From a virus (taxonomy: Duplodnaviria > Caudoviricetes), in the IMG/VR virus record IMGVR_UViG_2838247499_000001, positions 10,120 through 74,119 of that record: 64,000 bases of DNA, one strand, 5' to 3'. Under the pieces are notes generated by a model, which saw nothing but the letters and a program-made list of their open reading frames with translations, was not told the DNA's origin and did not search any database. Position 1 is the stretch's first letter. Every line of letters starts with the position of its first letter. Shown here piece by piece: positions 13,929 to 51,408 of the stretch. A program made the position numbers and the translations under genes.

Positions 13929-14087
13929 ATGCCCTTCTTCCCCAAACCCCAACCAGTCGATCCCTTCGAACTGTTCATGGCCAAGCTCATTGGCGTGAAG
14001 TTCGAGCGTAGAGAAGCCAACACTGTCCTCGTTGGCTATCTCTACAAGGGCTGCATCTACGTCACCGAGCTCTACAGCGTCACTTGA
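13929..14087 (+). CDS. Small hypothetical protein
   Basis: MPFFPKPQPVDPFELF...; converges on vRNAP stop. Confidence 0.5.
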   Translation: MPFFPKPQPVDPFELFMAKLIGVKFERREANTVLVGYLYKGCIYVTELYSVT

Positions 14088-17000
14088 TGAGCGACATCGG
14101 CACCGACACCGTGGCCAGGCGATCCAGAGCGCCGGGGTACTGCAAGGCACCCCAGCTCCACGGGTTGTTGCCCAGGTGGTGCAGGAACGAACCATCCAGC
14201 ACGTTGGGGCCGATGCTCATGTAGTGATCCAGGGCCATCAGGCCCAGCACTCGACCAGGGTTCTCACGCATCGTGCGAGTCAGAACTCGCTGGATGCGCA
14301 GGAAGTACTTGGTGAACATGAACAGACCCATGTTGTCCAGGTACTGCATGCCGCGGTGCATCGGGACGTCGTAGTTGATGAACGTCTCGCTGGCGCGCTG
14401 CAGGGCCTGCTCCTTGGTCATCGGGTCCTTCTTGGTCACCAGGTGCTGGTACAGCGCATAGCGGGCCATGAAGTCCGACAGCCGGGTCATCCGGCTCATG
14501 GCCTGGTAGGTCTTGGTGTCGTGCGTCATGTAGACCTGCTTGGCCGCGGCCACCACGCCCGGGTTCAGGGCCTTGGTGAAGCGCTCGGTGCGACGAGCCC
14601 ACTCGGTCTTGTACGAGTAGGGGTCGTTTTCCTGGGCGACGTCTTCCACGATCGTGGGCATCAGGCCGGCCTCCATCAGCTCCTTGACCGGGTTGCGCGC
14701 CAGCGCATCCTTCAGGCGGGCCACCTGGCGCTCGATGTCCGAACGGGTGCCATTGCCTGCCGGCAGGTAGCCAGTGTCCAGCATCTGCTGCAAACGCTGC
14801 AGCTCGTTGCTGTCGCGCTCGAAGGCCACGGCGCCGCGCATGGCCACCAGGTGATGACGCACGAAGTCGCGCAGAGGCACCCCGGACAGAGCCAGTTGGG
14901 TGAAGTTCGACAGCACGTTGTCGATCAGCACCACCCCCGACTTGACCACGATGATGTCCTTCGTCTCCTTGACGATCTCCTTCCAGGCCTCCTCACCGCG
15001 GGCCAGATACCAGCCCAGCTTCTTGGCGTAGTTGTCGGCCTCGCGGTCGTCCATGCCCTGGCTGCGCGCATACAGGTCGAACCAGCCTCGAACGATGGCT
15101 TGCACGCCCTTGAGCGTGTCCTTGTCCTTGCGCAGGAACTCAGCAGCAGAAGCCGCCCGATAGCCGAACATGACGTCCAGCATGTCGTTGTGGACGTACA
15201 TGCCCTTGAAGCCCCAGACCCGGTTTACCTCCTGCTTGGTCTTCTCCGGCAGCAAGCGCCAGATCTCCTTGAGCTGGGGATCCGTGCTGTCCACCCCGAC
15301 CAGGAAGTAGCCCTTCTGGCGGTTGACGTCACGATCAGCGTCGAACTGCGCCTTCAATGCCTGCACGGCCTCGGAGTTCTGCGCCGGCGTGGTTTGCTTG
15401 TCGAACACCGAGCCGGCCAGGGTGCCGAGAACTGCATCGAAGTCGTTGTTGCGCTGCAGGATGTCGTCCTTGGTCTGCTCCTCCATCAGATGGCGCCAGT
15501 TCACCACCTTTCCGTGCTCGTTGTAGACGGGCGCCATGTGGTGGGTGCGATCGAGCTCGAGGTCCCGATGCGGGTCCAGGCGACGATCCAGCAGCGACAG
15601 CTTGCCGGCAGTCACCGCGGCCTGGCGCTGGGCATTGCGCCGGCCATCGTCGAACCCGGTGTGCAGGAAGCCGTTGTGCAGCTGCGAGCCCTTGGCCGCG
15701 GTGTCGGTCAGCGACATGATCCCGGAGTCCCAACGGGCACGGGCAGCACCGCGGCGCACGTAGATGCGCTGCTTCTGGCTCACCGGGTCGTGCAGGTCGT
15801 CCTGCACCTTGGCTCCCTCGGAGAAACCCTGAGCCAGCAGATCCTTGCCCCGCTCCTCGCCGGCGACTTCGAAGGCGGTGTGCGGGTTGAAGATCTCGGG
15901 CGTGTAGCCGTGCTGCATCAGCACCGGGTTGCCCCCGAACAGGCGCTCCAGGGCGTCAGCCTCCAGCTTCTTCAGCGTGCGCAGCAGGAAGTCCACCCCG
16001 TTGCCGCCATCCTGGCGAGCCGTCTCGGCAGACAGCACCGCGGCCGCGCGGGTCTTGTCAGCCACATCGGTCGACTTCAGGGCGAACAGCGAAGCCAGCA
16101 CCTTGATGCTGTCCTCGTGCTCCTCAGCCACTGCGCTGGCATGGGCCTCGTACCGGGTGTCGAGCATGCGCGCGATCACGTGGGCGTTGGGCATCAGGAA
16201 GCCCTTGACCTGGCCGGTGGCCTTGAAGTGCCCCAGGATGCGAGCCTGCTCGACGTACAGCCGGCGCAGCCGGGCTGGCAGTCGAGCCTCGAACTGGGCG
16301 ATGGCCTGGTCGAGCGCCGGCTGGCTGGTCAGCAGCTGCTCCATCTCGTTGAAACCGAAGTGGTCCAGCAGGTTATGCAGGCCCGTCCGCATGAACACCC
16401 GCGTCACGCTGGCCTTGGCTTCCGAGCTCAGGTCCTTGCCCTCGTTGACGAACGACTCCAGGGCGAACTTGGCCGAGTTGCTGATCAGGCTCTTGCGCTG
16501 GGCTTCCCGGTGCTTGACCAGGCGCAGGGACTTCTCGGCCCACTCCTTCACGCCGGCGACTTCGCGCAGCAGCGACGACAGGATGCCGCCTCGCTCGTTC
16601 ATCGTGCGATCGCGGAACTGCTGCAGCGCGTCATAGAACTGCTGCTGGCGGTGGCCGGCGACGGTGCGGACCACCGCGGCACTGCCCTTGACGATGCCGC
16701 TCTTGCTCTTGCGGAAGAAGTCCGAGCCAGCGACCTGCTCGACCTTTTTCATGGTCGCCTCGCTCGCCTTGGTGACCGCGTTCTCCAGTGGCTCCAGGTA
16801 GTTCACCCGCGCCTTGCCGTCCTTGATGGCTTCGCGGTTCTTGGCTTCGATGTCCACCAGCTGGCCAACCAGGGTCTGCAGCTTCTCGTCCAGGTTCTGG
16901 CCGTCGTAGGTGTGCGTGGCCATCCGGGCGAAGAAAGCCAGGATGTTCTCGAACACGATCTGCACCTTGTCGGCGAAGGTCTTGCCCTCGCTGACCGTGC

Positions 17001-20000
17001 GCCGATCCTTGCTCGGCACCTGCAGCAGCTTGTTCACGCCCTGGTGAGCGAGCGCCAGCGCAGCGAACCGGGCGAGGTACTCGCTCTTGTCGCCGTTGTC
17101 GGCTTCCACCTTGAAGATGAAGTCGTAGTGCGCCGGCGAGGCGAAGTCCGAGGGCTTCAGCGTCTGCTGGGCCTCGGTGAACAGGTCCGACAGCTCCTGG
17201 TAGGCCAGCTTGGTGTGGCCGGAGTTGTCCTTCAGCGCCGCTCGCACCGTGGCTTCCACCTGCTCGATGGCGAACGCTTCCTGGTCCGACACCGGCAGGT
17301 TGGCCAGGACCCGGCTGGCGAAGGGCGCCAGGCCGGTCTGCTGGGCCTTCAGCCAGGCTTCCCGGGGGGAAGTCGGGGCGTAGGGCTTCAGGGCCTCTGC
17401 GAACGCGCCAAACGGGCCGTGGAGCGCGTCGACGATGCCGGACAGGAGTTCGGACAGGTGCGCCTCGAATCGCGGCTCCAGGGGCCGATTCGCGTCGGCC
17501 AGGGCCTCATGGATCGCCTGGGTCGTGAACGCATCCACGGCAGCCATCGACCGGTTGATCGAGGCAGCCTCCGTCTGCTCCTGCGGATTCTGCAAGCCCT
17601 GGGTCTGAGCCACAGCCTGAACCAGGCCCGACACGTTGGCCACCAGGAGTGCGAGCCCCGTCTCCGCTTCGTGGAACAGCGGGTTGCCCACTGCCTTGCC
17701 CAGCAGGCCGGTCAGCGCCTTGATGAACTTCTGCAGCCCGTTGAGCAGGCGGTTGCCACCCGACTTCGACGGGGCATACATGCTGGCCAGGATGTCACGC
17801 TGGAACGCTTCGTTGGTCATCCCCCAGGAGATGAACTCGTCCAGGTTCTCGGTGGCCGCGGCATAGCGGCCATCCTTGTCCATCGCCTTGGCCTGCTCGC
17901 GCAAGGCCTCGAGCTCGTCGATGAGCTGCTTGGCAGCCGGGTCCGGCTGCTTGCTGGTGCGCTGCTCCCACAGGTAGCGAGCCAGGACACCGTGCAGCAT
18001 CTCGTGCAGCACCGTCTCCGCGGTCAAGCCAGAGGCCTTGAAGGCCGGGCTCAGGAAGTTCACCTCGTGGCGACCCTGACCGGCCACGTACCAGCCACGC
18101 GACGGGGTCTGCGCCGGCGCGATCACCGCATCCACCGCGGTGTCAGGCTTGACCAGGCGGAACGCCAGGTCGTTGGGCAGGACCCGGGCCACCAGGGCCA
18201 GTAGCTTCTGGTTGGCCGGCGACAGGCCGGCACCCTTCAGGTACGCCACCATCTCGGTGCCCGACTTGTCACCACCGTCCAGGAAGGCCACCAAGCCCGT
18301 GTCGCTGGCCACCGCCGACCGGCCCAGCTCACCGAACGGCGAGGTCTTCGGGGCAGGCACGGCAACAGGCGCAGCCTGGATCGCCGGCGCCGGCTTGGCG
18401 AACACCGCCAGGTGCAGCAGCCCCAGGGCCTCCATGTGGGACGGGTCCATCATCTGCGGCACAGCGGCCAGCTTCTCGGCCGCGGCCTTGCGGTCAGCGT
18501 CGGTCACCTCGTAGCTGCCGCCGTCGAAGGCGTACTGGTCCACCACCGCCCACTGGCTCATGGCCTGCAGCTTGGTCGTGTCCGCCTGGCGGGCCAGGTC
18601 GAAGGCCTTGCCCATCGCGTCGGCCAGCACCTGCTCGGGAGACTGCTTCTTGGAAGCCAGCGCCTCGAACACCTGGCGCAAGTTGGCCACCGCGGCCGGG
18701 GTCAGCGTTCCGGCGTCCTGCATGGCGGCGATCCCGCTCACCACCCGAGCCAGCGCATCGTAGGCCGCGGTCATGGGCGAGTAGCCCAGCAGCGACTCCC
18801 AGGTGCTCTGGTTGAACGCCTGGGCGGTCTTGGCCAGCGTGCCGACTCCGTCACCCACGGCGTCGTGGATGTTCAGGATGTTGCGGCCCAGCTGGGTCAG
18901 GTGGGAGATCTTGCTGTCCAGCGAGTGCGTCGAGGCCGACACCGCCAGCACGCCGGGACCGGTCTGCTGCACGGCCTGGCCACGGGCCGTCAGCTGCTTG
19001 GCGCCGTTGCCCAGGGGTTGGGCAAAGCCCACCGCCGTCTCGTAGGCAGGCGAGTCCACCGGGCCACGCTCGCGTCGAGCCAGCAGGATCCCGTGCGCCA
19101 GGTTGCCATCGTCCTGGCTCATGGCCGTGTGCATCACCGGCAGGATGCCGGCCAGCTTCTCTTTCAGCTGGGCTTCCTGCTCGGCCGACAGGTCGTGCAG
19201 CGGCACGCCGGCCTTGTTGCGCTCGATGCCCAGCTCGTCCATGAATTCACCGCGGGCCGCCTGGTACACCGCGTTGTAGAGCTCGTAGGCCAGGCTGGTC
19301 GTGGTCGTCAGCGCCTTGCGCTTCTCGATGAAGGGGGCAAACGCCTTCTCCACCACGCTCGCCGTGGCCTCACCCATCGTGTCACCGTAGGCCTTGCGCA
19401 GCGCCTTGAGCTGTCGATCCGACAGTACCCGGGCGTCCATGTACTTGGCGATCGGCTGGCCCACTTTCAGGGTCGGCGCACCACCGTGCTGCAGCAGCGT
19501 GTTCAGGTTGGCGATGAAGTCGTCGACCCTCTCCTGGCTGGCTTGCTTGACCGAGAACTGCTCGAGCTGGGCGTAGACCCCCTCGATGAAGGTCTGGGCC
19601 ATGCCGCGGCGGATGCTCTTGAAGCCAGAACCGAAGTTCAGCGGGTTCAGCGCACCCTTGACCAGGTCACGCCCGGCCTTCGTCACCACACCAGCGTCGT
19701 CGGCCACCCGGCCGGCCACGTTCCAGATCGCCGAGATCACGCCGGCAGGGACCTTGCCCTCGCCCAGCATGCCGCGCATACGACGGTCGATGTCCTTGGC
19801 GGTGTGCTCGTAGATGTCCGCGTTGCCCGCGGTGCCACGCCAGATGTTGTACTGGCGGAACTCGCTGTCCTCGGTGAAGAAGCCGCCGCGCTCGAGCAGC
19901 GCCTGCAGGTCTTCCACCGTCTCGCCGGCGCCGTAGAGCACGTGGTTCAGCATCGTGCCGTTGGCTACGCCGTCCACCTCACCCATCAGGTCGGTGGTGA

Positions 20001-23000
20001 ATTCCTTGGCACCGGTGGCCAGCGCCTGCTGGTAGTGCGCCCAAGCGATCAGCGCCGCCAGGGTGTGCAGCTTCTCCTTGCCGGCCAGCACCGCATTGAC
20101 GATCGCGCGCTGCTGCTTGGCGTCCAGCTCGGTGGCGCCGTACAGGGCTTGCTGCAGGGCCTGCACGCCGGCGACGAACACCGGCTCCTGGAGCTGGGCT
20201 TCGACCGCGGCCACCGACTTCTGGCTGGCACCCTTCTCGGTCTTGATGCCCAGGCCCTCGGCCACGCGCAGCTTGAAACCAGTCAGCAAGGGACCGCCCT
20301 CGACCGGCACCGTGGTCTTCCAGTCCGGATGCACGGTCAGCCAGCGGTGGATCTTGCTGGTCTGCGGGTTCACGGCCGTCGTCTCGATGCCGACCCGCTG
20401 CTGCTTCCACATGTTGTACGTGAGGAAGAAGGGCTGCTCGACACCACCGTTCGGCACCAGGACCTCGCTCACGAAGTCCATGAAGCTCTTGAACTCGCGG
20501 CGGTAGCCATCGTTCTTGGCTTCCTTGCCCTTGCGGTTCACGCCGTGCGTGTTCTCCGCGGTGACTTCCACCACACCGGCCATCTCCAGGGCCATCTCCT
20601 CGGTGAGGGCGCTCAGCACCTTCATCGGGTCCTTGGCCACCACTCGACCGTTGTCGGTCTGGTTCTGCTTGATGACCTTGCGGATCAGGTCCGGCACACC
20701 CATGTCGGTGTCCGACTTCTGCTGCACCTGCTTGACGGGCTCGACGCTCGGCAGCTTGGCGGCCGACTCGATGCCGAACAGGCTGCCGATGATGTTCTGC
20801 GAACCCTTCAGGGTGTCGGCGATCTCCTTGGCCTGGCCGGTCAGCTGGCGCTGCCCGTCCCGGGCCAAGCGGAAGAAGTGGTGGGGCTGCTTGTTGGCCA
20901 GCGCCGGGGGGTTGTCCACACCCTCGTAGCGCAGGTCATGGATCAGCTGGGCGTCGATGTCCGTGCGGATCACGATGCCCTGGTCCTCCAGCAGCTTCAG
21001 CGCATGGGCACCCAGCGACACCCGCAGCTTGGCGATCATGTCCTGGGGAGCGTCCTTGCGCGCCTTCAGGCCCAGGGCGTCGAGCACCCGCGAGCCAAGG
21101 GAGTCCACCAGCATCGACTGGTAGCTGCCCACCTGGCCCAGCGTCTCACGCGCCAGCTGCGACACCACATCGTCTTCGCTGTGACCCAGGATGCTGTTGA
21201 TGTCGGCATCCAGGTTCACATCCAGCCGGCCGGCCTGGTCACCGATCCAGGCGAACACCGCCGCGGTGATGCCGGTCTTGACGTTCTCCTCGACGTCGCC
21301 GTCGACGATCAGGTAGCGGATCGGGTCCTCGAAGTTGAACGCCTCGTTGTGCGAGGGCTTCAGGTTCTTCTGGATCTCGCCGGCCCAGGCCTTGGCCTTG
21401 AGGGCGAACATGCGCAGCGCGCTCTGTTGCTCCTCGGTCAGGCCGTCCTTGTCCTTCAGGTACTCGCGCAGCTGGATGGCCTTGGCCGCCCACTTGCTCA
21501 TGAAGTCCTTGACCGCCACCAGCGGACGGAGGGACCCGTCCTTGATGGATCCCTTCACCTGGGTGAAGAAGTCCCCGAACTTCTTGGTCCGGTGCGTCGC
21601 ACCTTCGCCAGCGCTGTCGCGCGTGGCTCGGAGCTCACCCGACTCCACAGTCTGAGCTTGAGCTTCAGTCGACTGAGATTCAGCCTGCAGAGCACTCTGC
21701 TCAGAGTTCGTGACAGACTCCGCGAGATCAGCTTTGCTAACCTCGACTGGGGCTGCAGGCGCATCCTGCGCTGCAGAGAGGCTGGTATCCTTCGGATTAG
21801 ACTGGTTTTGACCCTCAGCTCGACTGTCAACTGCAGTCGACTCAGGGGACTGAGACACAGTGTTCTCAGTCTCCACAGTAGAGCCGGAGGCTACTACAGC
21901 AGCCCCGGCCTCGGACTTCAGCCCAGCGGACTCCACCGCGTTCGAAGCTCCGGCAGCGGCAGGTCCAGCATCTTGGACTGCAGCACCGCCTGCTCCATCT
22001 TTTGCCGGCGCTCGTTGCGCTGCTTGACCTTGAGTGCCCGCTCCTGCAGCGGAACCTTGCGGTGCGTTCTGGACATTCGTCCCTCCAGTGGTGGTAGTGG
22101 TCTTCGGTTGAGAGAACTTCAGGTCGTAGCCAGCCTTGAGCTCGGCCAGCGCCTTGTTGATCGCCTCGGCTTCCCGGGGCAGCTGCGTCAGCCACTTGTC
22201 CGTGCTGATCGTCAGGCCGCCGTTCTGGGCCATCTGCTTGTCCGACAGGCGGGGGCCGTTGTTCACGACCCACTCGCCGGCCTTGGTGCGGACGATCTGG
22301 CCGCCCACATCCGCGTCTTCCGCGGCACGGGCCTTGGCCTGGTGGTCGGCGGCGAACTTGGCCAGCAGGGCGAGCACCCGGCCGGCTTCCTTCTGGTCTC
22401 CGGAAGCCAGGGCAGCAGCCACCCGCGTGCGGTACTGGTCGATGCCCTGGTAGCCCTTGCCGCCCACGTAGATCTCGGCCTCGACGCCACCCAGGGTCTT
22501 GGCGCGGTTCTCGGCCACCCGGGAATCGGCGAAGGCACGCAGGTAGTTGCGCTGCTCGTCCGTCAGGGCGTTGGTCGCGTTGTCGGCCAGGCTCAGGGCC
22601 TGCTGCGGATCCAGGCGGCCAGGGCTGGCCATGGACAGCGTGATGAGGGCATCGGCCGCATCCCGGGCTGCCTTGGTCGCCACGGCATCGTCCGGCGTCA
22701 CCGTCGCGGTGACCTTCTCGATGTGCGACTGCACCTCGGCGGCCGGGCTCGCCACGACGCCCAGCTGGTCATAGGCCGACTTCGCCTTGGCCAGCTTCTC
22801 GTCCATCCTGGCCACCCGGGCCTGCATCTCGGCCAGGACCTTGGCTTCGGGCTGGTTGTCCAGGCTCTCCTGCAGCCCTTGAATCAGGTCCAGCGTCGAG
22901 CTGTGCGCCGGCGTGCCCGGTTGCAGGATGGCCAGCTGTTGCTGGGCGCTCTGCAGCTGCTGCTTCTGGTCAGTCAGCACCTCGGGCGACACGGCATCCA

Positions 23001-24474
23001 GGACCTCCTGGGCCTTGTCGCGGCTGGCTTGCAGCTCGCTGACCACCTTCTGGGCCTTGGCCAGGTTGGCCTGCTTCTGCGCCGGCGTGGTGGTCTCCTG
23101 CTTGGCATGAGCCAGCAGTGCGATCACGGCGTCGTCCGGGGCATAGCCCTGCTTCTTCGGGTCGATCAGCGCGTCGACGTTGCCCGTCTGGGCAGCATCA
23201 GCCACCACCTTGGCCGCAGCTTGCTTCTCCTCCCGAACCTGGGCCTGCTCAGGCGTGGCGCCGGTGGCTTCAGCCACAAGGCGTCCGCCGCCAGACAGGC
23301 CAGCACCTGCAATGCCACCGATCGCCGCACCGGCGTAGATGTCCTTGGCCGAGGCCGGCTTGCCCGTGACCTCACCTTCCATGTACGTCTGGAAGCCTTC
23401 GGTCGGCGCCTCGGTCAGCAGGCCTTCACCGGCTGCCTTGCCGGCGTTCTTGAGCGACTGCTTGAAGCCAGCAGTGACAGCGTCCTTGCCCTTGCCTGCG
23501 AAGGCGAGAGCGGCCGTGTCGCCTGCGTGCTCGGCGATGGCCAGGGACGCGGCTTGCAGCGCCATCTTCTGGCGCACATCCTCGGGTGGCAGCTCGCCGC
23601 CGTGCTGCGCCTGGTAGTTCTGGATGCCCTGGTTGTAGTTGTCCAGGGCATAGCCGACGTTCGAAGCACCCAGAGCCACCTTGCCCGCCTTGCCAGCCAC
23701 ACCACCCACCGCCAGCTGCGGCAGGTTCTGCACGACGTACTCGAGCGAAGCCTGCGGATTCCCCGCGGCGACAGCACCGGCGTTGTAGATCAGCTTGGCC
23801 AGGCCGGCCGTGACGTTGGCCACCCCACCTTCCTTGACCTGGCTCCATGCCGGGTCGAAGCCAGCGCCCAGCTCCTCGTTGAAGGCCGTCTGCTTGGACT
23901 GCAGCACCGTGTCCTTGTAATCGGTGGACTCGACGATGTTGCGGGCCGATTCCCGCTTGACGTTCATGTCCTTCCAGATCGACAGCGGCGTCGGCGCGTT
24001 CGGGTTCTGATCGGTCATGGCCTGCGCACGGGCCTGCACCTGCGCGCGCATCTCCGGATCGGTGATACCGCCCGGGATGACCACCGGAGGCGCAACCTTG
24101 CGGTTGATCTGTGCCATGTCGGCCGGCGACGCCTGGCCCTTGTGGAAGCGATCCAGTGCAGCCAGGTCCTGCTCGGTCAGGTTGGCCTGGTCGGCCGCGG
24201 CGATCGTGCCGGGAATCAGGCTGGCCAGCTGGCCGGCCAAAGTGCCCAGGCCCTGGTATGCGCTGGCGCCCAGGTTCACCGCCCGGCCGAGAATGTTGTC
24301 CTCGTTCAGGCCGAGTTTCCGGACCCAGGAATCCTGATCGTTCACCACCGGCGTTGCCGGGGTTTGCGGAGCCAGCTCGGCCTTTTTCTGTTCCGATGCC
24401 GCGGCGAGATTCAGCCGTTTCTGCTCAGCCTCCAGACGGGCATTGAGAAGGGCATCGAGATCGAATGGGGACAT
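14080..24474 (-). CDS. Virion-encapsidated RNA polymerase (N4 gp50-like)
   Basis: About 3464 aa from ATG 24474; no Cys seen from this start; motif A EVDGVANG, motif B RDLVKGALNPLNFG, motif C NIHDA. Confidence 0.95.
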   Translation of the reverse strand: MSPFDLDALLNARLEAEQKRLNLAAASEQKKAELAPQTPATPVVNDQDSWVRKLGLNEDNILGRAVNLGASAYQGLGTLAGQLASLIPGTIAAADQANLTEQDLAALDRFHKGQASPADMAQINRKVAPPVVIPGGITDPEMRAQVQARAQAMTDQNPNAPTPLSIWKDMNVKRESARNIVESTDYKDTVLQSKQTAFNEELGAGFDPAWSQVKEGGVANVTAGLAKLIYNAGAVAAGNPQASLEYVVQNLPQLAVGGVAGKAGKVALGASNVGYALDNYNQGIQNYQAQHGGELPPEDVRQKMALQAASLAIAEHAGDTAALAFAGKGKDAVTAGFKQSLKNAGKAAGEGLLTEAPTEGFQTYMEGEVTGKPASAKDIYAGAAIGGIAGAGLSGGGRLVAEATGATPEQAQVREEKQAAAKVVADAAQTGNVDALIDPKKQGYAPDDAVIALLAHAKQETTTPAQKQANLAKAQKVVSELQASRDKAQEVLDAVSPEVLTDQKQQLQSAQQQLAILQPGTPAHSSTLDLIQGLQESLDNQPEAKVLAEMQARVARMDEKLAKAKSAYDQLGVVASPAAEVQSHIEKVTATVTPDDAVATKAARDAADALITLSMASPGRLDPQQALSLADNATNALTDEQRNYLRAFADSRVAENRAKTLGGVEAEIYVGGKGYQGIDQYRTRVAAALASGDQKEAGRVLALLAKFAADHQAKARAAEDADVGGQIVRTKAGEWVVNNGPRLSDKQMAQNGGLTISTDKWLTQLPREAEAINKALAELKAGYDLKFSQPKTTTTTGGTNVQNAPQGSAAGAGTQGQAAQRAPAKDGAGGAAVQDAGPAAAGASNAVESAGLKSEAGAAVVASGSTVETENTVSQSPESTAVDSRAEGQNQSNPKDTSLSAAQDAPAAPVEVSKADLAESVTNSEQSALQAESQSTEAQAQTVESGELRATRDSAGEGATHRTKKFGDFFTQVKGSIKDGSLRPLVAVKDFMSKWAAKAIQLREYLKDKDGLTEEQQSALRMFALKAKAWAGEIQKNLKPSHNEAFNFEDPIRYLIVDGDVEENVKTGITAAVFAWIGDQAGRLDVNLDADINSILGHSEDDVVSQLARETLGQVGSYQSMLVDSLGSRVLDALGLKARKDAPQDMIAKLRVSLGAHALKLLEDQGIVIRTDIDAQLIHDLRYEGVDNPPALANKQPHHFFRLARDGQRQLTGQAKEIADTLKGSQNIIGSLFGIESAAKLPSVEPVKQVQQKSDTDMGVPDLIRKVIKQNQTDNGRVVAKDPMKVLSALTEEMALEMAGVVEVTAENTHGVNRKGKEAKNDGYRREFKSFMDFVSEVLVPNGGVEQPFFLTYNMWKQQRVGIETTAVNPQTSKIHRWLTVHPDWKTTVPVEGGPLLTGFKLRVAEGLGIKTEKGASQKSVAAVEAQLQEPVFVAGVQALQQALYGATELDAKQQRAIVNAVLAGKEKLHTLAALIAWAHYQQALATGAKEFTTDLMGEVDGVANGTMLNHVLYGAGETVEDLQALLERGGFFTEDSEFRQYNIWRGTAGNADIYEHTAKDIDRRMRGMLGEGKVPAGVISAIWNVAGRVADDAGVVTKAGRDLVKGALNPLNFGSGFKSIRRGMAQTFIEGVYAQLEQFSVKQASQERVDDFIANLNTLLQHGGAPTLKVGQPIAKYMDARVLSDRQLKALRKAYGDTMGEATASVVEKAFAPFIEKRKALTTTTSLAYELYNAVYQAARGEFMDELGIERNKAGVPLHDLSAEQEAQLKEKLAGILPVMHTAMSQDDGNLAHGILLARRERGPVDSPAYETAVGFAQPLGNGAKQLTARGQAVQQTGPGVLAVSASTHSLDSKISHLTQLGRNILNIHDAVGDGVGTLAKTAQAFNQSTWESLLGYSPMTAAYDALARVVSGIAAMQDAGTLTPAAVANLRQVFEALASKKQSPEQVLADAMGKAFDLARQADTTKLQAMSQWAVVDQYAFDGGSYEVTDADRKAAAEKLAAVPQMMDPSHMEALGLLHLAVFAKPAPAIQAAPVAVPAPKTSPFGELGRSAVASDTGLVAFLDGGDKSGTEMVAYLKGAGLSPANQKLLALVARVLPNDLAFRLVKPDTAVDAVIAPAQTPSRGWYVAGQGRHEVNFLSPAFKASGLTAETVLHEMLHGVLARYLWEQRTSKQPDPAAKQLIDELEALREQAKAMDKDGRYAAATENLDEFISWGMTNEAFQRDILASMYAPSKSGGNRLLNGLQKFIKALTGLLGKAVGNPLFHEAETGLALLVANVSGLVQAVAQTQGLQNPQEQTEAASINRSMAAVDAFTTQAIHEALADANRPLEPRFEAHLSELLSGIVDALHGPFGAFAEALKPYAPTSPREAWLKAQQTGLAPFASRVLANLPVSDQEAFAIEQVEATVRAALKDNSGHTKLAYQELSDLFTEAQQTLKPSDFASPAHYDFIFKVEADNGDKSEYLARFAALALAHQGVNKLLQVPSKDRRTVSEGKTFADKVQIVFENILAFFARMATHTYDGQNLDEKLQTLVGQLVDIEAKNREAIKDGKARVNYLEPLENAVTKASEATMKKVEQVAGSDFFRKSKSGIVKGSAAVVRTVAGHRQQQFYDALQQFRDRTMNERGGILSSLLREVAGVKEWAEKSLRLVKHREAQRKSLISNSAKFALESFVNEGKDLSSEAKASVTRVFMRTGLHNLLDHFGFNEMEQLLTSQPALDQAIAQFEARLPARLRRLYVEQARILGHFKATGQVKGFLMPNAHVIARMLDTRYEAHASAVAEEHEDSIKVLASLFALKSTDVADKTRAAAVLSAETARQDGGNGVDFLLRTLKKLEADALERLFGGNPVLMQHGYTPEIFNPHTAFEVAGEERGKDLLAQGFSEGAKVQDDLHDPVSQKQRIYVRRGAARARWDSGIMSLTDTAAKGSQLHNGFLHTGFDDGRRNAQRQAAVTAGKLSLLDRRLDPHRDLELDRTHHMAPVYNEHGKVVNWRHLMEEQTKDDILQRNNDFDAVLGTLAGSVFDKQTTPAQNSEAVQALKAQFDADRDVNRQKGYFLVGVDSTDPQLKEIWRLLPEKTKQEVNRVWGFKGMYVHNDMLDVMFGYRAASAAEFLRKDKDTLKGVQAIVRGWFDLYARSQGMDDREADNYAKKLGWYLARGEEAWKEIVKETKDIIVVKSGVVLIDNVLSNFTQLALSGVPLRDFVRHHLVAMRGAVAFERDSNELQRLQQMLDTGYLPAGNGTRSDIERQVARLKDALARNPVKELMEAGLMPTIVEDVAQENDPYSYKTEWARRTERFTKALNPGVVAAAKQVYMTHDTKTYQAMSRMTRLSDFMARYALYQHLVTKKDPMTKEQALQRASETFINYDVPMHRGMQYLDNMGLFMFTKYFLRIQRVLTRTMRENPGRVLGLMALDHYMSIGPNVLDGSFLHHLGNNPWSWGALQYPGALDRLATVSVPMSLIK
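21918..22076 (-). CDS. Candidate nested 52-aa basic protein in an alternative frame of vRNAP
   Basis: GGAGGG RBS then ATG; codons match genome preference while the vRNAP frame is atypical here. Confidence 0.5.
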   Translation of the reverse strand: MSRTHRKVPLQERALKVKQRNERRQKMEQAVLQSKMLDLPLPELRTRWSPLG

Positions 24475-24535
24475 AGGTATTCCGGAGGGCTCGGGTAATT
24501 GGGGACAGAGTGTACCCAATACCCGCCCCGGAATA

Positions 24536-25291
24536 TCAGCGCCCGTACTCTTGCATTCTCCGGAAACTCTCCGGATTCACCGGTTTCGGGTCTGCCCACA
24601 AACCCCTCTTGGCGGCCCGCGCTTCATTTTCCGCAGCCACCAGGTCGGGGTTGTTCACATACCGGCGATACAGCCAGGCCATGCCGTCCTTGATCATCGC
24701 CTTGTCGATGTTGGCGCCGGAGATCTCGATCTGGCACAGCGACCGGTCGTAGTTCTTGCCCGCCACGGCCGGCCGGGAGATCTTCAGGGTGACCTCCTTG
24801 TTGAGCACCATCTCCTCCAGCCGGCGCTTGCTCTCCTCCCCGAACGGCTGGCCGGCCTTGCCCACCTTGGAGTGGGCCACTTCCGGCGCGTCGATCGAGT
24901 CGATGCGGCAGTTCACCGTGGAGCCGTCGCCCCGCTTGGCGCTCAGGCTGTCGCCGTCGCCCACGTAGGTGATGACGGCCTTCTCCCCACCGGCGCTGGA
25001 GGGCTTGCCCTGCACCGCGGTCACCGGCTGCTGCCACTGCACATCCTTCGGGATTGCCACAGGCTTGCTGGCTTCCGTGGTCGTGCCGCTGCCCACGTTC
25101 AGTGCCACGTGATCGGTCGCCGGCTTGGCCTGGGCAGAGCTCGGGCTCGAACCAGGAACAGCAGCAGGCTTGGGCGCCTCGAAGGCACCCAGCGACTTGG
25201 CTGGTTGCGGCGACTTGCCCAGCCCGTCCATCGGCAGTGACCCCGCCCCACCAGCTGCCGGAGCAGCTGGCGTGGACGTCGGGGAGGTCAC
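24536..25291 (-). CDS. Thermonuclease (SNase-fold), probably a frameshift extension of the upstream ejection protein
   Basis: GDGDS, RIDSIDAPE, QPFGEES, YDR, GMAW, AR..KRGLW; Pro/Ala linker at N-terminus. Confidence 0.85.
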   Translation of the reverse strand: MTSPTSTPAAPAAGGAGSLPMDGLGKSPQPAKSLGAFEAPKPAAVPGSSPSSAQAKPATDHVALNVGSGTTTEASKPVAIPKDVQWQQPVTAVQGKPSSAGGEKAVITYVGDGDSLSAKRGDGSTVNCRIDSIDAPEVAHSKVGKAGQPFGEESKRRLEEMVLNKEVTLKISRPAVAGKNYDRSLCQIEISGANIDKAMIKDGMAWLYRRYVNNPDLVAAENEARAAKRGLWADPKPVNPESFRRMQEYGR

Positions 25292-26466
25292 CGGGCTTTT
25301 TTTGCCGCGTTGTCGAAGATGGTCTGGGCGTCCTTCAGCGCGATGGCCTGGCGATCCCGCAGGTTCACCAGCTCGTCACGCAGGTTCTGCGTGCGTGCCC
25401 GGCGATCAGCGAAGTCGCTGCCTTCCACGATCTTCTTCATGTCGGCCTTCAGCAGCCCGACGATCGTGTCGTCCATCTTGTTGGAGCCAATCAGCTTGGC
25501 GACGTTGCCCACCAGGCCCGTACCCACGTTCGAGGCGTACTGCTGAACCAGGGCCTGAAGCCGTGCCTCGGGAATGTGGGCGAATCGCGGGTCAGAGGTC
25601 ACCGCCTGGCCCACCAGCGCCATGTACTTCTCGCGGTTGTCCTTGTCCGGGATCTGATCCGAGATCGACTTGACGATCCGGTCGTAGGCCTCGGCGTTGC
25701 CCTTGTCCAGCGCAGCGATGCGCGCCGTCGTCTCACCCAGGCCCCGTTCCATGCGATCCAGGCTCTGCAGGAACACCTGCTTCTCGTTGGTGTTGGCGTT
25801 CTTCACGGATGCCTGGGCCTGCGTGGCCGAGGCGTTGGCCTGGATCCGAGTGGAGTCGGCGTTCTTGTCCGCGGTGGCACGAGCCAGCGGGATGTCCGCA
25901 GTCTGGGCCGTCGACAGGGCGATGTCGGCCGTGGCCTTGTCCGCGGCTCGCTTGTCGACGTAGGCCTTCTGCACCAGCTCACCCACGCCAGGCATGCCCT
26001 TGGCGGCGAGCTCACGCAGCATCGCCTCGGCGCCGGCGACATCGCCATGGGCAGCCATGAGGCGGGCCTGTTCGAGCACCGGCCGGGCAGCGACTTCCGC
26101 CTGCTTGTCGGTGAATGCCTGGTTCTGCAGGACCTGCTGCTGCACCGCCGCGTTGCGGGCATCCTCGGCACCGATCAGTTCGGCCCGGCTCTTGGGGTCC
26201 AGGGCAGCGCGGATCTGCTCCAGCTGGCCGGACTGCTGCAGGGCCGCCAGCTGCTCGGGCGTCTTGGCGTTGGCCAGGGCCTCCTTGAAGGCCACCGTGT
26301 CGCTCAGGCGCTGGCGATCCAGGACACCCTGGTTCACATCGCGCTGGTCCGTGAGCACCTTGCCCACGCCATCGAAGGCGCCGGCGATCGAACCCTGGGC
26401 CGCCAGGAGCGCACGAGACGCTTCAGCGATCGAGGGGGCGTTGACGTTCTGCCAGGTGATCGGCAT
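25288..26466 (-). CDS. Internal virion / ejection protein (N4 gp51-like)
   Basis: MPITWQNV N-terminus, Ala/Gln-rich helical, synteny with vRNAP. Confidence 0.75.
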   Translation of the reverse strand: MPITWQNVNAPSIAEASRALLAAQGSIAGAFDGVGKVLTDQRDVNQGVLDRQRLSDTVAFKEALANAKTPEQLAALQQSGQLEQIRAALDPKSRAELIGAEDARNAAVQQQVLQNQAFTDKQAEVAARPVLEQARLMAAHGDVAGAEAMLRELAAKGMPGVGELVQKAYVDKRAADKATADIALSTAQTADIPLARATADKNADSTRIQANASATQAQASVKNANTNEKQVFLQSLDRMERGLGETTARIAALDKGNAEAYDRIVKSISDQIPDKDNREKYMALVGQAVTSDPRFAHIPEARLQALVQQYASNVGTGLVGNVAKLIGSNKMDDTIVGLLKADMKKIVEGSDFADRRARTQNLRDELVNLRDRQAIALKDAQTIFDNAAKKAR

Positions 26467-26987
26467 TACTTCACCCCGTACTGGTTCATGTACTCACCCA
26501 CCGACTGGTAGGCCCCGGGGTTCGATGCGACCCGGGCGCGCTGGCGATCCGACAGCTGCGAATTCACCATGTTCTTCTGCGCGCCGAAGTTCAGGTCGAA
26601 CTGGCGCTTGCCTTCTGCCAGCTGCTGCTTGGCCAGGCCGTACTGCTGCATGCCGAAGTAGGCGCTGGCCAGGCCCGAAGCCAGACCCAGAGCCGTACCG
26701 CCCCAGCCAGGCGCTTCCTTGGTGCCGACCGCGCCCTTCATGAAGTCGCCGAAGCCAGACATCCAGTTGCCACCGCCCGCGGTGCCGGTGCCCGACGCCA
26801 ACAGCGGCAGCGAGTCGCTGATCGAGTTCGCCCCGAAGGCGTTCGTGCCGTCGAGCTCGGCCTTGCTGAGCTGCGGCAGAACGACCGGGTTGCTGTAAAC
26901 CTCACCGAAATTCCCGGTGAAACCATTGCCGCCGCCCTGGGGCATATAGCCGAAGTTCGTCAGCGCAGTCAGGTAATCATTGCCCAT
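26466..26987 (-). CDS. Internal virion protein (N4 gp52-like)
   Basis: Gly-rich with hydrophobic segment; synteny. Confidence 0.75.
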   Translation of the reverse strand: MGNDYLTALTNFGYMPQGGGNGFTGNFGEVYSNPVVLPQLSKAELDGTNAFGANSISDSLPLLASGTGTAGGGNWMSGFGDFMKGAVGTKEAPGWGGTALGLASGLASAYFGMQQYGLAKQQLAEGKRQFDLNFGAQKNMVNSQLSDRQRARVASNPGAYQSVGEYMNQYGVK

Positions 26988-29271
26988 TTAGTTCCCCTCC
27001 TACGGAGTCATCCAAAGTTGGAAGTCTGAGAGCGGTATCCACGTAGGAGGAAATTGCGCTGTATCCAAGAGCGCCGATATTCCCGGCGTGGACCGTTCGA
27101 TTATAGAAGTCATCGGGTTTCTCACCCCAAATCACCATCGGCTGGAGTAAATGGCTCCGGCCGTCAAGCAGATCCTTGGCGTCCTCGAGCAGCTTGGTCT
27201 GCTCCTTGACCCAGGCCTGCCAGTCATTGGCGTCCTGAACCAGGTCGCCCATCAGGTCCCGTGCATAGGAAGCGGCCGCGCTCACCAGCGTGCTGGCAGC
27301 CTTGAGCATCTGCTGCGCCTCGGGAACTGCGAAGTTGCCGGCATCGAAGCCCTTGGCTGCACCGTAGGCCGCCAGGATCACGGCGATGATCAGCGCGACG
27401 TCGATGCCCACCAGCTTGACGAACAGCTTCACCGCCCAGCTGATGATGAAGTTCAGGACGATGCGCTTGACGATGATGATCACCAGCTGCACCAGGGCGG
27501 CGTCCAAGGCCGCTACCGCGGCCAGGCCGGCGCCCAGGTCCTGGCCCAGCGTGTAGACCGTGATGGCCATGGCCACGATCTCAAGGAACGTGATGAACCA
27601 GTCCTGCTGATACCACTTCAGCTTGGTCACCACCGCGCTGTGGAACAGGAAGTGCAACGACCTGGCGTACAGCTGCTCTCGCTCGGCCATCGTGTAGTCG
27701 CCGGCGATCGAGCGGTCGATCGGGATCAGCAGCACCTGCTTGTCGTCTCCGTCGAGCAGGCTGGTGTAGTCTCCGTCGATGAAGTGCTGCATCCGCAGGT
27801 TGACGACCTGGATCTCCTCGTACAGGTTGGCGCTCACCTGGTGCCGGTACAGGTGCAGGTGTGTCTCCACCACACCGACGAGCACCTCGGCACTGTTCTC
27901 CGGGTTCACATCCCGGTAGGTGTACGTCGCCGGGTGTGTGCTGAGCTCCGCGGTGTGCGTGCCCACCGGGCCGATGGAGCCAGCCACCAGGCGCTTGTAG
28001 AGCCCGTCGTTGCTCAGCGCCATCTTGAACCTGGCGTCTTGGATCACGATCGCATTGGCGCTCGGAGGCGGGTAGAACAGCGCCGAGTCCAGCAGCGTCT
28101 TCTCCGGCGTCCACTGGATGGGCGTGCCGGCGCTGGCGTAGAGGTTGTCGAAGAACTGGAACAGGTAGCGGCACTCCAGCGGGTCGGTGCTCACCGCGGG
28201 CACAGCCAGCTGCAGCATGGCCGTCTTGACCTGGCCGATGTCCGGGTTCTCGTTGATGGCGTCAGCCACCGCATCGAAGTCCATGCCCAGGTAGCGACAG
28301 AACTTGACCGACTGCTTGTACCAGTCGCTCGTCGTGTCATCGAGCGGCGACTGGAAGCCGAAGCGCACGTAGCACATCGGGAAGAAGGCGCCAGCCTCGC
28401 TGTGGGCCGACTCGACGAGTGCATCCAGGGCAGGGTAGGTGCCCGAGCCCAGGCGATACGACCAGTAGGCCGGCACGCCATCGCGCTGGTAGCGCGCGTG
28501 CAGGTAGTCGCCCTCGACCAGGCCGGCCATCGAGATGTCGAAGACCTCCTTCGGCGCCGGCACAGCCTCGGTGATGATCTGGCCGTCACCGGTGTACGTC
28601 GGCCCCACCGACTGGCCCCAGACGTAGCGGACCCGCACGTAGTCCGTCGACACGGAGGTGTCGGTCGCCGGCGCGGTGAAGGGTCGGTAGACCCCCACCG
28701 TCGCACCCAGCGGCCGATCCGGTGTGTAGCCGGCAGACGGAGGCAGGCCCCAGTGAGCCAGTGAACCTGGCGCGCGGGCATTGAGGTTCGAGCCAGCGAC
28801 CACGACGAACATGTCGTCCAGGTAGACCGGCTGGCCCTTCACCGCGGTGAGATTGCCCAGCTGGTTCGTGGCCGGGTTGTAGCCGTGCTCGGCGATCAGC
28901 TTCTCCCAGGCCATGTGCAGCTCGTTGGCCGGCCCCAGCTGGGCGTAGTCGATCGTGATCGTGCCGCCCAGCGTGGTGGTCAGGTGCACCTGGATCGCAT
29001 CGCGGATGTCCTGCGTGTCCTTGAACTCGCCCGAGGGCAGGCCATAGGCGTAGCTGCGGCCAGCCCACTCGTACAGGCGCTCGGCCTTGACGCCGATGCT
29101 GCCGATGAGCTCCTCCATGATGAAGCCAGAGATGGTGTCATCCTGGCTCGGCTCGCCCAAGATCGCGTTGAACGTGCCAGTCTTGATGGCGTTCGGGAGC
29201 AGCTTGTCCTCGATCACCCGAGAGGCCGAGGTGCCCACCGTCGTCACGTACTTGCTGCTGAACAGACCCAT
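26977..29271 (-). CDS. Virion-associated protein (N4 gp53-like) with C-terminal TM segments
   Basis: MGLFSSK start, KWYQ motif, hydrophobic C-terminal region; synteny. Confidence 0.8.
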   Translation of the reverse strand: MGLFSSKYVTTVGTSASRVIEDKLLPNAIKTGTFNAILGEPSQDDTISGFIMEELIGSIGVKAERLYEWAGRSYAYGLPSGEFKDTQDIRDAIQVHLTTTLGGTITIDYAQLGPANELHMAWEKLIAEHGYNPATNQLGNLTAVKGQPVYLDDMFVVVAGSNLNARAPGSLAHWGLPPSAGYTPDRPLGATVGVYRPFTAPATDTSVSTDYVRVRYVWGQSVGPTYTGDGQIITEAVPAPKEVFDISMAGLVEGDYLHARYQRDGVPAYWSYRLGSGTYPALDALVESAHSEAGAFFPMCYVRFGFQSPLDDTTSDWYKQSVKFCRYLGMDFDAVADAINENPDIGQVKTAMLQLAVPAVSTDPLECRYLFQFFDNLYASAGTPIQWTPEKTLLDSALFYPPPSANAIVIQDARFKMALSNDGLYKRLVAGSIGPVGTHTAELSTHPATYTYRDVNPENSAEVLVGVVETHLHLYRHQVSANLYEEIQVVNLRMQHFIDGDYTSLLDGDDKQVLLIPIDRSIAGDYTMAEREQLYARSLHFLFHSAVVTKLKWYQQDWFITFLEIVAMAITVYTLGQDLGAGLAAVAALDAALVQLVIIIVKRIVLNFIISWAVKLFVKLVGIDVALIIAVILAAYGAAKGFDAGNFAVPEAQQMLKAASTLVSAAASYARDLMGDLVQDANDWQAWVKEQTKLLEDAKDLLDGRSHLLQPMVIWGEKPDDFYNRTVHAGNIGALGYSAISSYVDTALRLPTLDDSVGGELNGQ

Positions 29272-29284
29272 CCCTCACCCCCAG

Positions 29285-29310
29285 AAAAAAAAGGGGAGCC
29301 GAAGCTCCCC
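29285..29310 (-). terminator. Rho-independent terminator
   Basis: Minus strand ggggagc-ttcg-gctcccc followed by T run. Confidence 0.8.
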
Positions 29311-29329: not shown

Positions 29330-30052
29330 TCAGGCGGCCCCGATGCCGTCGAGGAGCTTCTGCACCGCCTTGCCCACGTACAGGTCGCTGAGCTTGTTGG
29401 TTCCGTCCGCCACCGTCGCTTCGTCGGTGGTGCGCCGCACGTTCCAGCTGTCGATCAGCAGCTTGCCGGCTTTCTGCTCGGCATCGCGCTTGAAGCCATC
29501 GGTCTGCGCCTGGTACAGCGTCTTCTGCTTGCCGATCACCGAGTTGTCGTCCACACCGATCGCCTGCGTCTGCGCCTTCTCGGTCAGGACCTTCTGAGCC
29601 AGCAGGTCGGACTCCTTCGTGGTCTTGTCCTTCGTCAGCATCAGGACGTCGTACTCGGCCTGCAGCTTGCACTTCTGCGCCACCAGGACCTCGCCCTCGG
29701 TGATGGCATTCAGGCGTTGCTGCTCCATCAGCTCGGTCTGCTTCTGGATCTGCAGCACCTCGGCATTGGCCTTGGCCACCTGGGCCGTGGCCAGCAGCAC
29801 CTGCTGCTCCAGGACCTGGGCTTCCAGGCCCACCTTCTGGCGTTCCAGCAGGAACTTCAGCGCCGTTTCCAGCGTGGCCTGCATGGAGCCCAGGTAGACC
29901 GTGGCGTACTCACTGCCCTTGATGCGGTTCTTGGAGAACTCGTCCTCGAGGTGCGCCTTGTTGGCCTTCATCAGGACATCGAAGGCCCCGTCGCCCGCCA
30001 GCGTGGCGGTGGTCAGGTCTGCGATGGTCGGGACGACGATCGGTTCGCTCAT
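29330..30052 (-). CDS. Structural protein (N4 gp54-like)
   Basis: GDGAFDVLM...RIKGSEYATVYLG; synteny. Confidence 0.8.
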   Translation of the reverse strand: MSEPIVVPTIADLTTATLAGDGAFDVLMKANKAHLEDEFSKNRIKGSEYATVYLGSMQATLETALKFLLERQKVGLEAQVLEQQVLLATAQVAKANAEVLQIQKQTELMEQQRLNAITEGEVLVAQKCKLQAEYDVLMLTKDKTTKESDLLAQKVLTEKAQTQAIGVDDNSVIGKQKTLYQAQTDGFKRDAEQKAGKLLIDSWNVRRTTDEATVADGTNKLSDLYVGKAVQKLLDGIGAA

Positions 30053-36282: not shown

Positions 36283-36309
36283 AAAAAAGCCCCCAGCGAT
36301 GGGGGCTTT
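36283..36309. terminator. Bidirectional terminator
   Basis: aaaaaagccccca-gcga-tgggggcttt between convergent genes. Confidence 0.75.
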
Positions 36310-48007: not shown

Positions 48008-48050
48008 AGCCGACAGATCCATCCAACAGGGTGGGCCTGTCGGCTTTTTT
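48008..48050 (+). terminator. Rho-independent terminator
   Basis: agccgacag / ctgtcggct stem followed by T run. Confidence 0.65.
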
Positions 48051-51386: not shown

Positions 51387-51408
51387 AGAGGCCATGGGCC
51401 TCTTTTTT
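51387..51408 (+). terminator. Rho-independent terminator
   Basis: agaggcc-atg-ggcctct followed by T run. Confidence 0.6.

Follow-up and report, generated by a model that had tools for sequence, protein, structure and literature searches.

The overlapping reading frames

We analysed a stretch of 64,000 nucleotides (nt) from a virus of the Caudoviricetes, bases 10120-74119 of the 74,119-bp IMG/VR virus record IMGVR_UViG_2838247499_000001; the whole of this stretch is called the window below. Its minus strand carries, at 24536-26466, two overlapping open reading frames (ORFs), of which the first encodes a protein related to the ejection proteins gp51 of N4 and gp72 of DEV, and the second a staphylococcal nuclease (SNase) domain. 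From the comparison of sequences we consider it probable that programmed -1 ribosomal frameshifting at a run of seven A (A7) near the end of the first ORF makes two products in the window, namely the tunnel protein of 42 kDa and, as a minor form, a 68-kDa version to which the nuclease is tethered. A -1 frameshift that fuses the gp51-like protein to the SNase had been suggested by the initial annotation, which was made from the letters of the stretch alone; the relatives, among which we find the heptamer, the hairpin and fusions in a single ORF, lend support to it.

The first ORF (25288-26466, minus strand) encodes 392 amino acids (aa) or 42.0 kDa and ends in ..AAKKAR*, and the junction reads GCG GCA AAA AAA GCC CGG TGA CC on the minus strand. 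The slippery heptamer A_AAA_AAA (25297-25303, minus strand) lies in the X_XXY_YYZ phase of this ORF and ends 6 nt before its stop; the end of the ORF and the in-phase A7 had been described before, and both the ORF list and the minus-strand sequence confirm them. The 0-frame stop, TGA at 25288-25290 (minus strand), is found inside a GTGAC at the foot of the hairpin described below. It overlaps the GTG at 25289-25291 with which the 251-aa SNase ORF (24536-25291, minus strand, stop codon 24536-24538) starts, and because of this overlap the second ORF is in the -1 frame. A -1 slip is predicted to read ..AAKK and then SPVTSPTST.., and its product would have 390 + 253 = 643 aa and 68.2 kDa, in agreement with the size of about 643 aa given for the fusion at the outset. 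The similarity in size to N4 gp51 that was remarked upon then does hold for the numbers, as N4 gp51 has 644 aa according to the accessible text of PMC13434306, but the match in length is a coincidence and constitutes no evidence.

That lysine is almost always AAG in this genome is borne out by the counts: in 76 ORFs, called by the G+C content of third codon positions (GC3), there are 1095 AAG and 72 AAA codons, that is, 6.2% AAA. Taken from the AAA share of lysine codons, the chance of two consecutive AAA is 0.0038. Furthermore, only three A or T runs of at least seven occur in the record, and among the 27 in-frame X_XXY_YYZ heptamers at the 21,076 codon positions of the genome A_AAA_AAA is unique to this site. 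Neither a GGAGG-like nor another Shine-Dalgarno-like sequence was seen in the 14 nt 5' of the SNase-ORF GTG, as expected from the earlier remark that this ORF lacks a clear ribosome-binding site. An exact 17-mer pattern of the junction has 10 matches in viral contigs, none of which (0/10) adjoins a gp51-like or SNase gene.

A side observation concerns the remaining A-runs. Of the eight A/T runs of at least six in the genome, four belong to the sequence ATG AAA AAA GCC.., read on one strand or the other (36283-36288, 48045-48050, 51403-51408 and 62038-62043). They look like ORF starts reading MKKA, and the rare AAA therefore seems to be concentrated at gene starts.

Split and fused forms among relatives

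Three samples of related loci were drawn independently of the junction. Two were selected by the SNase, with 9 loci from viral contigs and 14 from metagenome contigs; the third was selected by the gp52-like gene that precedes the 392-aa ORF, and 80 of its 114 confirmed loci, again from viral contigs, were kept. Three loci, L010 to L012, were set aside, as their SNase lies within unrelated giant proteins. Clusters of N4-like SNase sequences were drawn at 80% domain identity. Of the 18 such clusters, eight are fused and the others split; among the split ones, nine have the SNase in the -1 frame and one (L097) has it in the +1 frame.

Conservation in relatives had been named as a way to check the proposed frameshift. 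In all nine split clusters of the -1 type an X_XXY_YYZ heptamer is in frame and is followed by the 0-frame stop after 3-6 nt, and the pairing of the hairpin is kept via compensatory changes, as detailed below. Counted by locus, 12 of the 13 split loci examined have an in-frame heptamer 3-6 nt before the stop. The heptamer is A_AAA_AAA in the window, L013, L014, L015 and L017, A_AAA_AAG in L008, L009, L026 and L006 (in the last of these inside an A10 run), C_CCA_AAG in L049, G_GGA_AAA in L085 and C_CCA_AAA in L096. The encoded residues thus vary (KK, PK or GK), and the X_XXY_YYZ pattern is constant; GC-rich L015 also retains A7. In a control taken from the gp52-selected sample, a heptamer within 12 nt of the stop was found in only 2 of 51 non-redundant complete gp51-like ORFs without SNase, compared with 4 of the 5 split loci of the same sample (Fisher p = 2e-4).

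Single-ORF fusions were found with phmmer and the SNase ORF: of the 150 best homologues of the 392-aa protein, P0130, P0104, P0041, P0080 and P0149 have the nuclease on the same chain, and a Pfam match confirmed the SNase in all five. Their junctions resemble the one predicted for the window. For example, P0104 reads ..LKKKSPVS.., P0041 ..EKKSPG.. and P0080 ..GKKKSEN.., whereas the KKSPVT of the window needs a -1 slip. The tree of SNase domains leaves 11 of its 18 inner branches open, and it gives no count of switches between split and fused forms.

Two loci deserve a remark of their own. L013:305-1180 and L014:302-1177 share an identity of 92.6% that sets in one base before the heptamer, and upstream of it blastn gives no alignment; the C-termini of their gp51-like proteins differ as well (..AAAKKAK and ..KSKKAK). 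The slippery site may, on this pattern, be a boundary for the exchange of the SNase module between phages. Another observation concerns L097, where the two ORFs overlap by 44 nt (L097:5960-6120) and the contig ends within the SNase; L097 could represent a damaged copy, a fault of the assembly or another kind of arrangement.

The downstream hairpin

A stem-loop that is predicted to stimulate the slip lies at 25235-25293 (minus strand). Its base pairs GUGAC.. with ..GUCAC and its apical stem is CCAGCUGC-uccg-GCAGCUGG. It begins 3-5 nt past the heptamer; the usual distance between heptamer and structure in -1 frameshift sites is about 5-9 nt, and in most relatives the stem-loop begins 4-6 nt after the heptamer. 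In the window, the 65 nt that follow the heptamer fold with -42.5 kcal/mol (z = -3.96, with 0 of 200 shuffles as stable), so the large hairpin seen by eye in the initial annotation is recovered by folding. For a longer stretch of 96 nt the value is z = -2.63, with 3 of 200 shuffles as stable. No T-run follows the window stem-loop and no terminator-like site was called there on the coding strand. A scan against Rfam gave two sub-threshold chance matches and no frameshift element.

Of ten junctions that were folded, seven (the window, L008, L013, L014, L017, L049 and L085) have z of -3.9 or lower with 0/200 shuffles as stable. The values are weaker in L015 (z -2.5, 3/200) and in L096 (z -2.4, 4/200). 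The RNAalifold consensus of 8 junctions has 19 pairs, of which 10 show compensatory changes, with a conserved GUGAC/GUCAC base and an apical stem that varies by lineage. In this alignment 91.4% of the cells are paired, compared with 77.6% in shuffles (0/500 reach it) and at most 51.4% if the partners are slid. The covariation score is 0.476, compared with 0.211 in shuffles (0/500) and at most 0.165 in the slid controls.

A covariance model of heptamer plus hairpin was run over 716,576 bases of related loci and gave 12 matches, all at these junctions, of which 10 are training sequences or close copies of them. The model missed L096, reached only E = 0.89 in L006 and gave no instance beyond the training set and its copies. 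Note that L096 and L006, the two junctions named as having weak hairpins, have a GGAGG-like stretch just 5' of the slippery run.

As a separate observation, L096 has two alternative stems after its heptamer (L096:6129-6185; CUGCAUC/GAUGCAG and GCGGAG/CUCCGC). Together they could make an H-type pseudoknot, unlike the simple hairpin of the other lineages.

The linker and the nuclease domain

The -1 extension begins with a linker of about 100 aa that is rich in Pro, Ala and Ser (24986-25297, minus strand). It starts with SPVTSPTSTPAAP and contains a conserved motif, SLPMDGLGKSPQP..SLGAFEAP, that is common to the window and to the fused relatives P0104 and P0130. The G+C fractions at codon positions 1, 2 and 3 of the linker are 0.67, 0.65 and 0.77.

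The SNase-like domain (thermonuclease, OB-fold) follows at 24539-24985 (minus strand), that is, residues 103-251 of the ORF. Pfam PF00565 matches aa 129-234 of the 251-aa ORF with E = 1e-20 and 74.6 bits, against a cut-off of 21, and the S. aureus nuclease 1syb_A was aligned with E = 8e-08. In this alignment D112-G-D114, R129, D134, E137 and R183 fall on the DGD, R, D, E and R of the S. aureus enzyme, and the nuclease residues that the initial annotation had read from the translation are indeed present. In S. aureus numbering, D114 and D134 correspond to the Ca-binding D21 and D40, and R129, E137 and R183 to the catalytic R35, E43 and R87. Across 31 relatives the catalytic positions are kept, with the exceptions of D134N in eight and D134E in P0041; furthermore, L085 is without the DGD and L097 is cut before R183. 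GC3 of the domain is 0.90, and this value together with the conserved catalytic positions indicates that the SNase ORF is under selection.

Two cysteines stand beside the catalytic arginines, C128 (24908-24910) and C186 (24734-24736). They are invariant in the 31 relatives, L097 being cut before the second, and the S. aureus chain in the 1syb alignment is without Cys at both positions. A disulfide between the two is possible and would be consistent with a site of action in the periplasm.

Outside the N4-like loci, the SNase was also seen in other large proteins. In the unrelated viral contigs L010, L011 and L012 it is N-terminal in very large frames, from 525 to more than 1800 aa, and the profile phrog_8809, with 2317 positions, has it centrally. 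It may be more common for giant virion-type proteins to carry a nuclease domain.

The 392-aa protein as a probable tunnel protein

A Pfam scan of the 392-aa protein gave no match. On the other hand, it matches phrog_6467 (E = 9e-12), and 603 homologues were found in a representative library of 1.84 billion proteins. A profile of 26 family members, with the window protein first, matches DEV gp72 (PDB 8vxq_R) over positions 1-311 with E = 4.1e-19. Furthermore, the position of the gene between the gp52/gp73-like gene and the gene of the virion RNA polymerase (vRNAP) matches the order around the tunnel protein in Schitoviridae. This profile match and the gene order identify the 392-aa protein as a homologue of DEV gp72 and N4 gp51, the periplasmic-tunnel ejection proteins of those phages, in line with the gp51-like identity assigned to it at first.

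In the accessible text of PMC11445570, DEV gp72 surrounds the portal of the virion as a 12-mer and forms the periplasmic tunnel after ejection as a 9-mer, and its C-terminal part binds the vRNAP. The corresponding text on N4 (PMC13434306) presents the 644-aa gp51 as the counterpart of DEV gp72, with a T7 gp15-like 'leg' fold, and the N4 ejection proteins as apparently without peptidoglycan-hydrolysing activity. Some members of the family do carry an enzyme in the middle of the protein: a Pfam match to the SLT transglycosylase domain was found in P0104 (that is, L004:2817-5750; E = 1.8e-11) and in P0026 (E = 7e-11). A C-terminal KK followed by 1-3 residues, as in the ..KKAR* of the window, occurs in 41 of the 150 best homologues; two of these KK-ending homologues, P0002 and P0015, returned no loci when used as single queries.

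Gene order and the rest of the locus

Every gene of the region is on the minus strand, and the order of transcription is the gp53-like gene, the gp52-like gene, the 392-aa ORF, the 251-aa ORF and the vRNAP-sized ORF. The gp53-like gene (26977-29271, minus strand, 764 aa, from the ORF list) has protein matches in 218 phage records, the best of which are Pseudomonas N4-like phages with about 30% identity. The gp52-like ejection protein (26466-26987, minus strand, 173 aa) matches phrog_2646 with E = 6.7e-28, and its stop overlaps the start of the gp51-like gene by 1 nt. The counterparts of both upstream genes in Ab09 are annotated 'N4 gp53-like' and 'N4 gp52-like'. Directly 3' of the SNase ORF lies an ORF of 3479 aa (14080-24519, minus strand), and its size and gene position suggest that it is the virion RNA polymerase: in Ab09 and Littlefix the same position is occupied by an N4 gp50-like RNA polymerase. 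Between the gp52-like and the RNA polymerase genes these two phages have one ORF (521 aa in Ab09 and 413 aa in Littlefix), whereas the window has two.

No close neighbour of the locus was found among the phage records searched. Neither blastn with the locus nor tblastn with the 392-aa protein gave a match in 50,697 phage records, and tblastn with the SNase ORF against the same records gave five, none of them N4-like; no cultured representative was found. A locus search with a single protein and a word-index protein search with the window's protein returned only the window's own protein. A scan of genome contigs gave only cellular SNase homologues with at most 41% identity and no clue to the host. 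G+C of the record is 64.0%.

We called no promoter-like sites in 24300-26700; two terminator-like sites were found in this range, within the 392-aa ORF and on the strand opposite to the genes. Apart from the locus itself, the 58 nt that separate a 240-aa ORF (29330-30052) from the gp53-like gene contain an A8 run at 29285-29292, which is T8 in the coding strand. A stretch rich in G+C comes before this run, which could serve as a terminator or as a spacer element. A T7 run is found at 1908-1914 between ORFs.

Alternative explanations

Several observations count against frameshifting at the A7, or narrow what the evidence for it can carry. In E. coli A_AAA_AAA is less slippery than A_AAA_AAG. 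The junction of L006 has no significant hairpin (z +0.39, with 120 of 200 shuffles as stable), and L097 has no heptamer, with its SNase in the +1 frame. The structural alignment consists of 8 hand-chosen, mutually related sequences, from which L006 and L096 were left out as unalignable. With most inner branches of the SNase tree open, the split clusters may share one ancestor, and the nine out of nine need therefore not be nine independent events. The AlphaFold2 model of the 251-aa ORF, built on an alignment of 8 rows, had a mean predicted local distance difference test score of 43.8, which is too poor, and was not used. Finally, a GTGA overlap of start and stop is present in the window, L006, L008, L013-L015, L017, L049 and L085, and coupling at this GTG could thus yield free SNase beside the fusion or instead of it.

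The last point leads to the strongest of the alternatives, namely that there are two separate proteins and no fusion, with the SNase made by termination-reinitiation from the GTG over the TGA and the A-run merely encoding a conserved C-terminal KK. Such overlaps of stop and start are used elsewhere in the operon, as the shared nucleotide of the gp52-like and gp51-like genes demonstrates, and the frequency of terminal KK in the family (41/150) indicates that KK is possibly a motif of the protein. However, what is conserved at the heptamer is the X_XXY_YYZ pattern, even where the residues have changed to PK or GK, and the codon usage of the genome speaks strongly against AAA AAA. L096 ends its 0-frame ORF with TAA, over which the -1 frame reads GTA; no ATG, GTG or TTG lies over the stop, and a restart there can therefore not be the general route. 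Furthermore, the -1 frame of L008, L013, L014, L085 and L096 has a stop 3-12 codons before the heptamer, and in these five loci it consequently opens only at the heptamer. The only internal ATG of the window SNase ORF (M21) sits within SLPMDGLG, a motif that begins before this Met and is conserved in the fused P0104 and P0130. A disordered Pro/Ala linker of about 100 aa has no obvious use at the N-terminus of a free enzyme, whereas in the fused relatives it joins both parts, and a separate start also leaves the covarying hairpin unexplained. We give two separate proteins a small chance as a replacement for frameshifting; the two routes are not exclusive, and some free SNase could be made in addition.

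The recoding could also be transcriptional. RNA polymerase would then stutter on the A-run and add or drop an A in some of the mRNAs, which brings the SNase in frame. Polymerase slippage is established for runs of about nine or more A, and A7 is short for efficient stuttering. Some relatives do have long runs: among the split loci L006, whose hairpin is not significant, has A10, and among the fused ones the L004 type has A9 and L031 has A11. Loss of a single A would place a stop 2-3 codons further on in both fused forms, and the long runs hence sit where the length of the run switches between a short and a long protein. While these three runs reach the length threshold, the A7 of the window is below it, and the heptamers of L049, L085 and L096 hold only A3-A4, which is too short for stuttering and fits re-pairing of tRNAs. 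A hairpin 4-6 nt downstream is also a signature of ribosomal rather than transcriptional slippage. In summary, stuttering is likely in the A9-A11 relatives, and these lineages look as if stuttering or a change of run length in the DNA replaces the ribosomal slip; judged from its sequence, it would not be the main route in the window, and for the window we regard it as quite improbable.

The least probable explanation, to which we assign only a very slight chance, is an artefact or a dead gene, that is, a true A8 with a single fused ORF or a recent frameshift mutation that cut off an unused SNase: homopolymers are error-prone, single-ORF fused relatives exist and the coverage of the A7 run comes from assembled contigs, but a 75,149-nt contig with a depth of 358, which may come from the source of this DNA itself, is identical to the window over the whole stretch, A7 included (as an assembled contig, in which minority variants are invisible), a 151-nt soil-metagenome contig from another study that covers 25180-25330 and reaches 27 nt beyond the run crosses A7 with 2 mismatches and no gap, the 0-frame end ..KKAR* matches the natural ends of many family members, neither the GC3 of 0.90 nor the catalytic residues of the SNase ORF have been lost, and the split form is present in nine clusters, also with heptamers that are not homopolymers. 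Among these split loci, L008 and L009, from different records, are 93.5% identical over 1266 nt with no gap; as both are split in separate assemblies, assembly error is unlikely to be the general cause.

Proposed mechanism

With programmed -1 frameshifting as the preferred explanation, the events at the junction may be pictured as follows. Most ribosomes would read to the TGA and release the 392-aa, 42-kDa tunnel protein ending in ..KKAR. A fraction of them would pause at the hairpin and slip back by one base, with both Lys-tRNAs still paired, and would continue through the linker of about 100 aa into the SNase domain, giving the 643-aa, 68-kDa isoform. The part that assembles at the portal and in the tunnel is shared by both forms, and for this reason the long form would be packaged and expelled together with the short one. 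It would then carry a tethered, putatively Ca-dependent nuclease to the inner-membrane end of the ejection channel. By analogy with the roles of DEV gp72 and N4 gp51, the nuclease may be delivered together with the vRNAP, as had been conjectured.

A wider picture can be offered only tentatively, and we think it possible rather than probable. It would have an uncultured N4-like clade that packages a nuclease tethered to its tunnel protein and fires it into the host as the DNA enters, with the dose per virion set by recoding. Lineages would have switched among heptamer plus hairpin, A9-A11 runs (with polymerase stuttering or a change of run length in the DNA) and hard fusion. The pair of cysteines and the Ca-type site would point to the periplasm, and action against foreign or host nucleic acid at the site of entry would be one possibility.

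What the locus adds

The N4-like ejection proteins have been mapped structurally only in 2024-2026, and the accessible text of the two reports (PMC11445570 and PMC13434306) describes them as plain formers of tunnels or pores. The words 'nuclease' and 'frameshift' are absent from the main text of these papers on DEV and N4, as far as it was accessible. In the main texts of the openly accessible literature searched, no programmed frameshift and no SNase-bearing ejection protein is reported for Schitoviridae; in the parts seen, the passages with 'frameshift' concern disrupted prophage genes or mutations of the host, and the sole match of 'thermonuclease' is in the gene table of another phage. Such a mechanism is textbook knowledge. 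What appears to be undescribed is its occurrence in this gene, the enzyme that is appended and the conservation in a clade seen only in metagenomes.

Part of the gp51-like family thus carries an enzyme as cargo, mostly SNase, with SLT in P0104 and P0026. Half of the SNase-bearing clusters would add the cargo by a conserved -1 frameshift, which suggests that the number of nuclease copies per virion matters to the phage. For annotation this means that the ejection-protein gene of such a genome should be extended to include the SNase ORF, which should not stay a free 'thermonuclease'. The natural series of heptamers and hairpins is also a possible test bed for the efficiency of frameshifting in GC-rich hosts. 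Finally, the locus raises the question of the role of a nuclease at the tip of a channel for DNA delivery.

Comparison with known systems

The closest relatives in function are DEV gp72 and N4 gp51, with which the window protein shares a homologous N-terminal part of about 300 residues and the position of the gene. Both of them are encoded by single ORFs (521 aa in DEV and 644 aa in N4), in phages that have no such SNase, whereas the protein of the window has 392 aa and a predicted SNase extension that is added by recoding. Ejected proteins with an enzyme domain are known from T7, where gp16 carries a lytic transglycosylase domain. As in gp16, an internal protein with an enzyme domain is predicted here to be ejected into the envelope, and the SLT domains of P0104 and P0026 are a further likeness; unlike in gp16, the enzyme of the window is a nuclease and would be added by recoding rather than be present on every copy. 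The SNase itself resembles the S. aureus thermonuclease (PF00565) in its domain match and in the Ca-binding and catalytic positions that are kept. It differs in that it would be tethered to a virion protein and not secreted by means of a signal peptide, and in its invariant C128 and C186.

As for the recoding, T7 10A/10B is a familiar case, in which a -1 frameshift yields a minor capsid isoform with a short C-terminal tail that co-assembles with the major one. Here, too, the predicted -1 shift is near the 3' end of a structural gene of a podovirus and would give a minor isoform with a C-terminal extension. On the other hand, the extension consists of a linker of about 100 aa and an enzyme domain, it is found on an ejection protein, and the site has a classical heptamer and hairpin.

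The E. coli dnaX gene, with its products tau and gamma, has the heptamer A_AAA_AAG, a downstream hairpin and an upstream Shine-Dalgarno-like element. The same A_AAA_AAG is found in L008, L009 and L026, the hairpin is likewise a few nt downstream, and a GGAGG-like stretch lies upstream in L096 and L006. The outcome is the opposite one: the slip in dnaX leads to early termination and a shorter protein, whereas here the stop would be bypassed and the protein would become longer.

The G/GT frameshift of lambda-like phages, at G_GGA_AAG in the genes of the tail assembly chaperones, sets a fixed ratio of a short and a long protein. It is likewise a -1 shift in a morphogenesis gene, and the heptamers of L085 (G_GGA_AAA) and L049 (C_CCA_AAG) are of the same type. 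While G and GT are assembly chaperones that do not become part of the virion, both forms of the tunnel protein are expected to be cargo of the virion.

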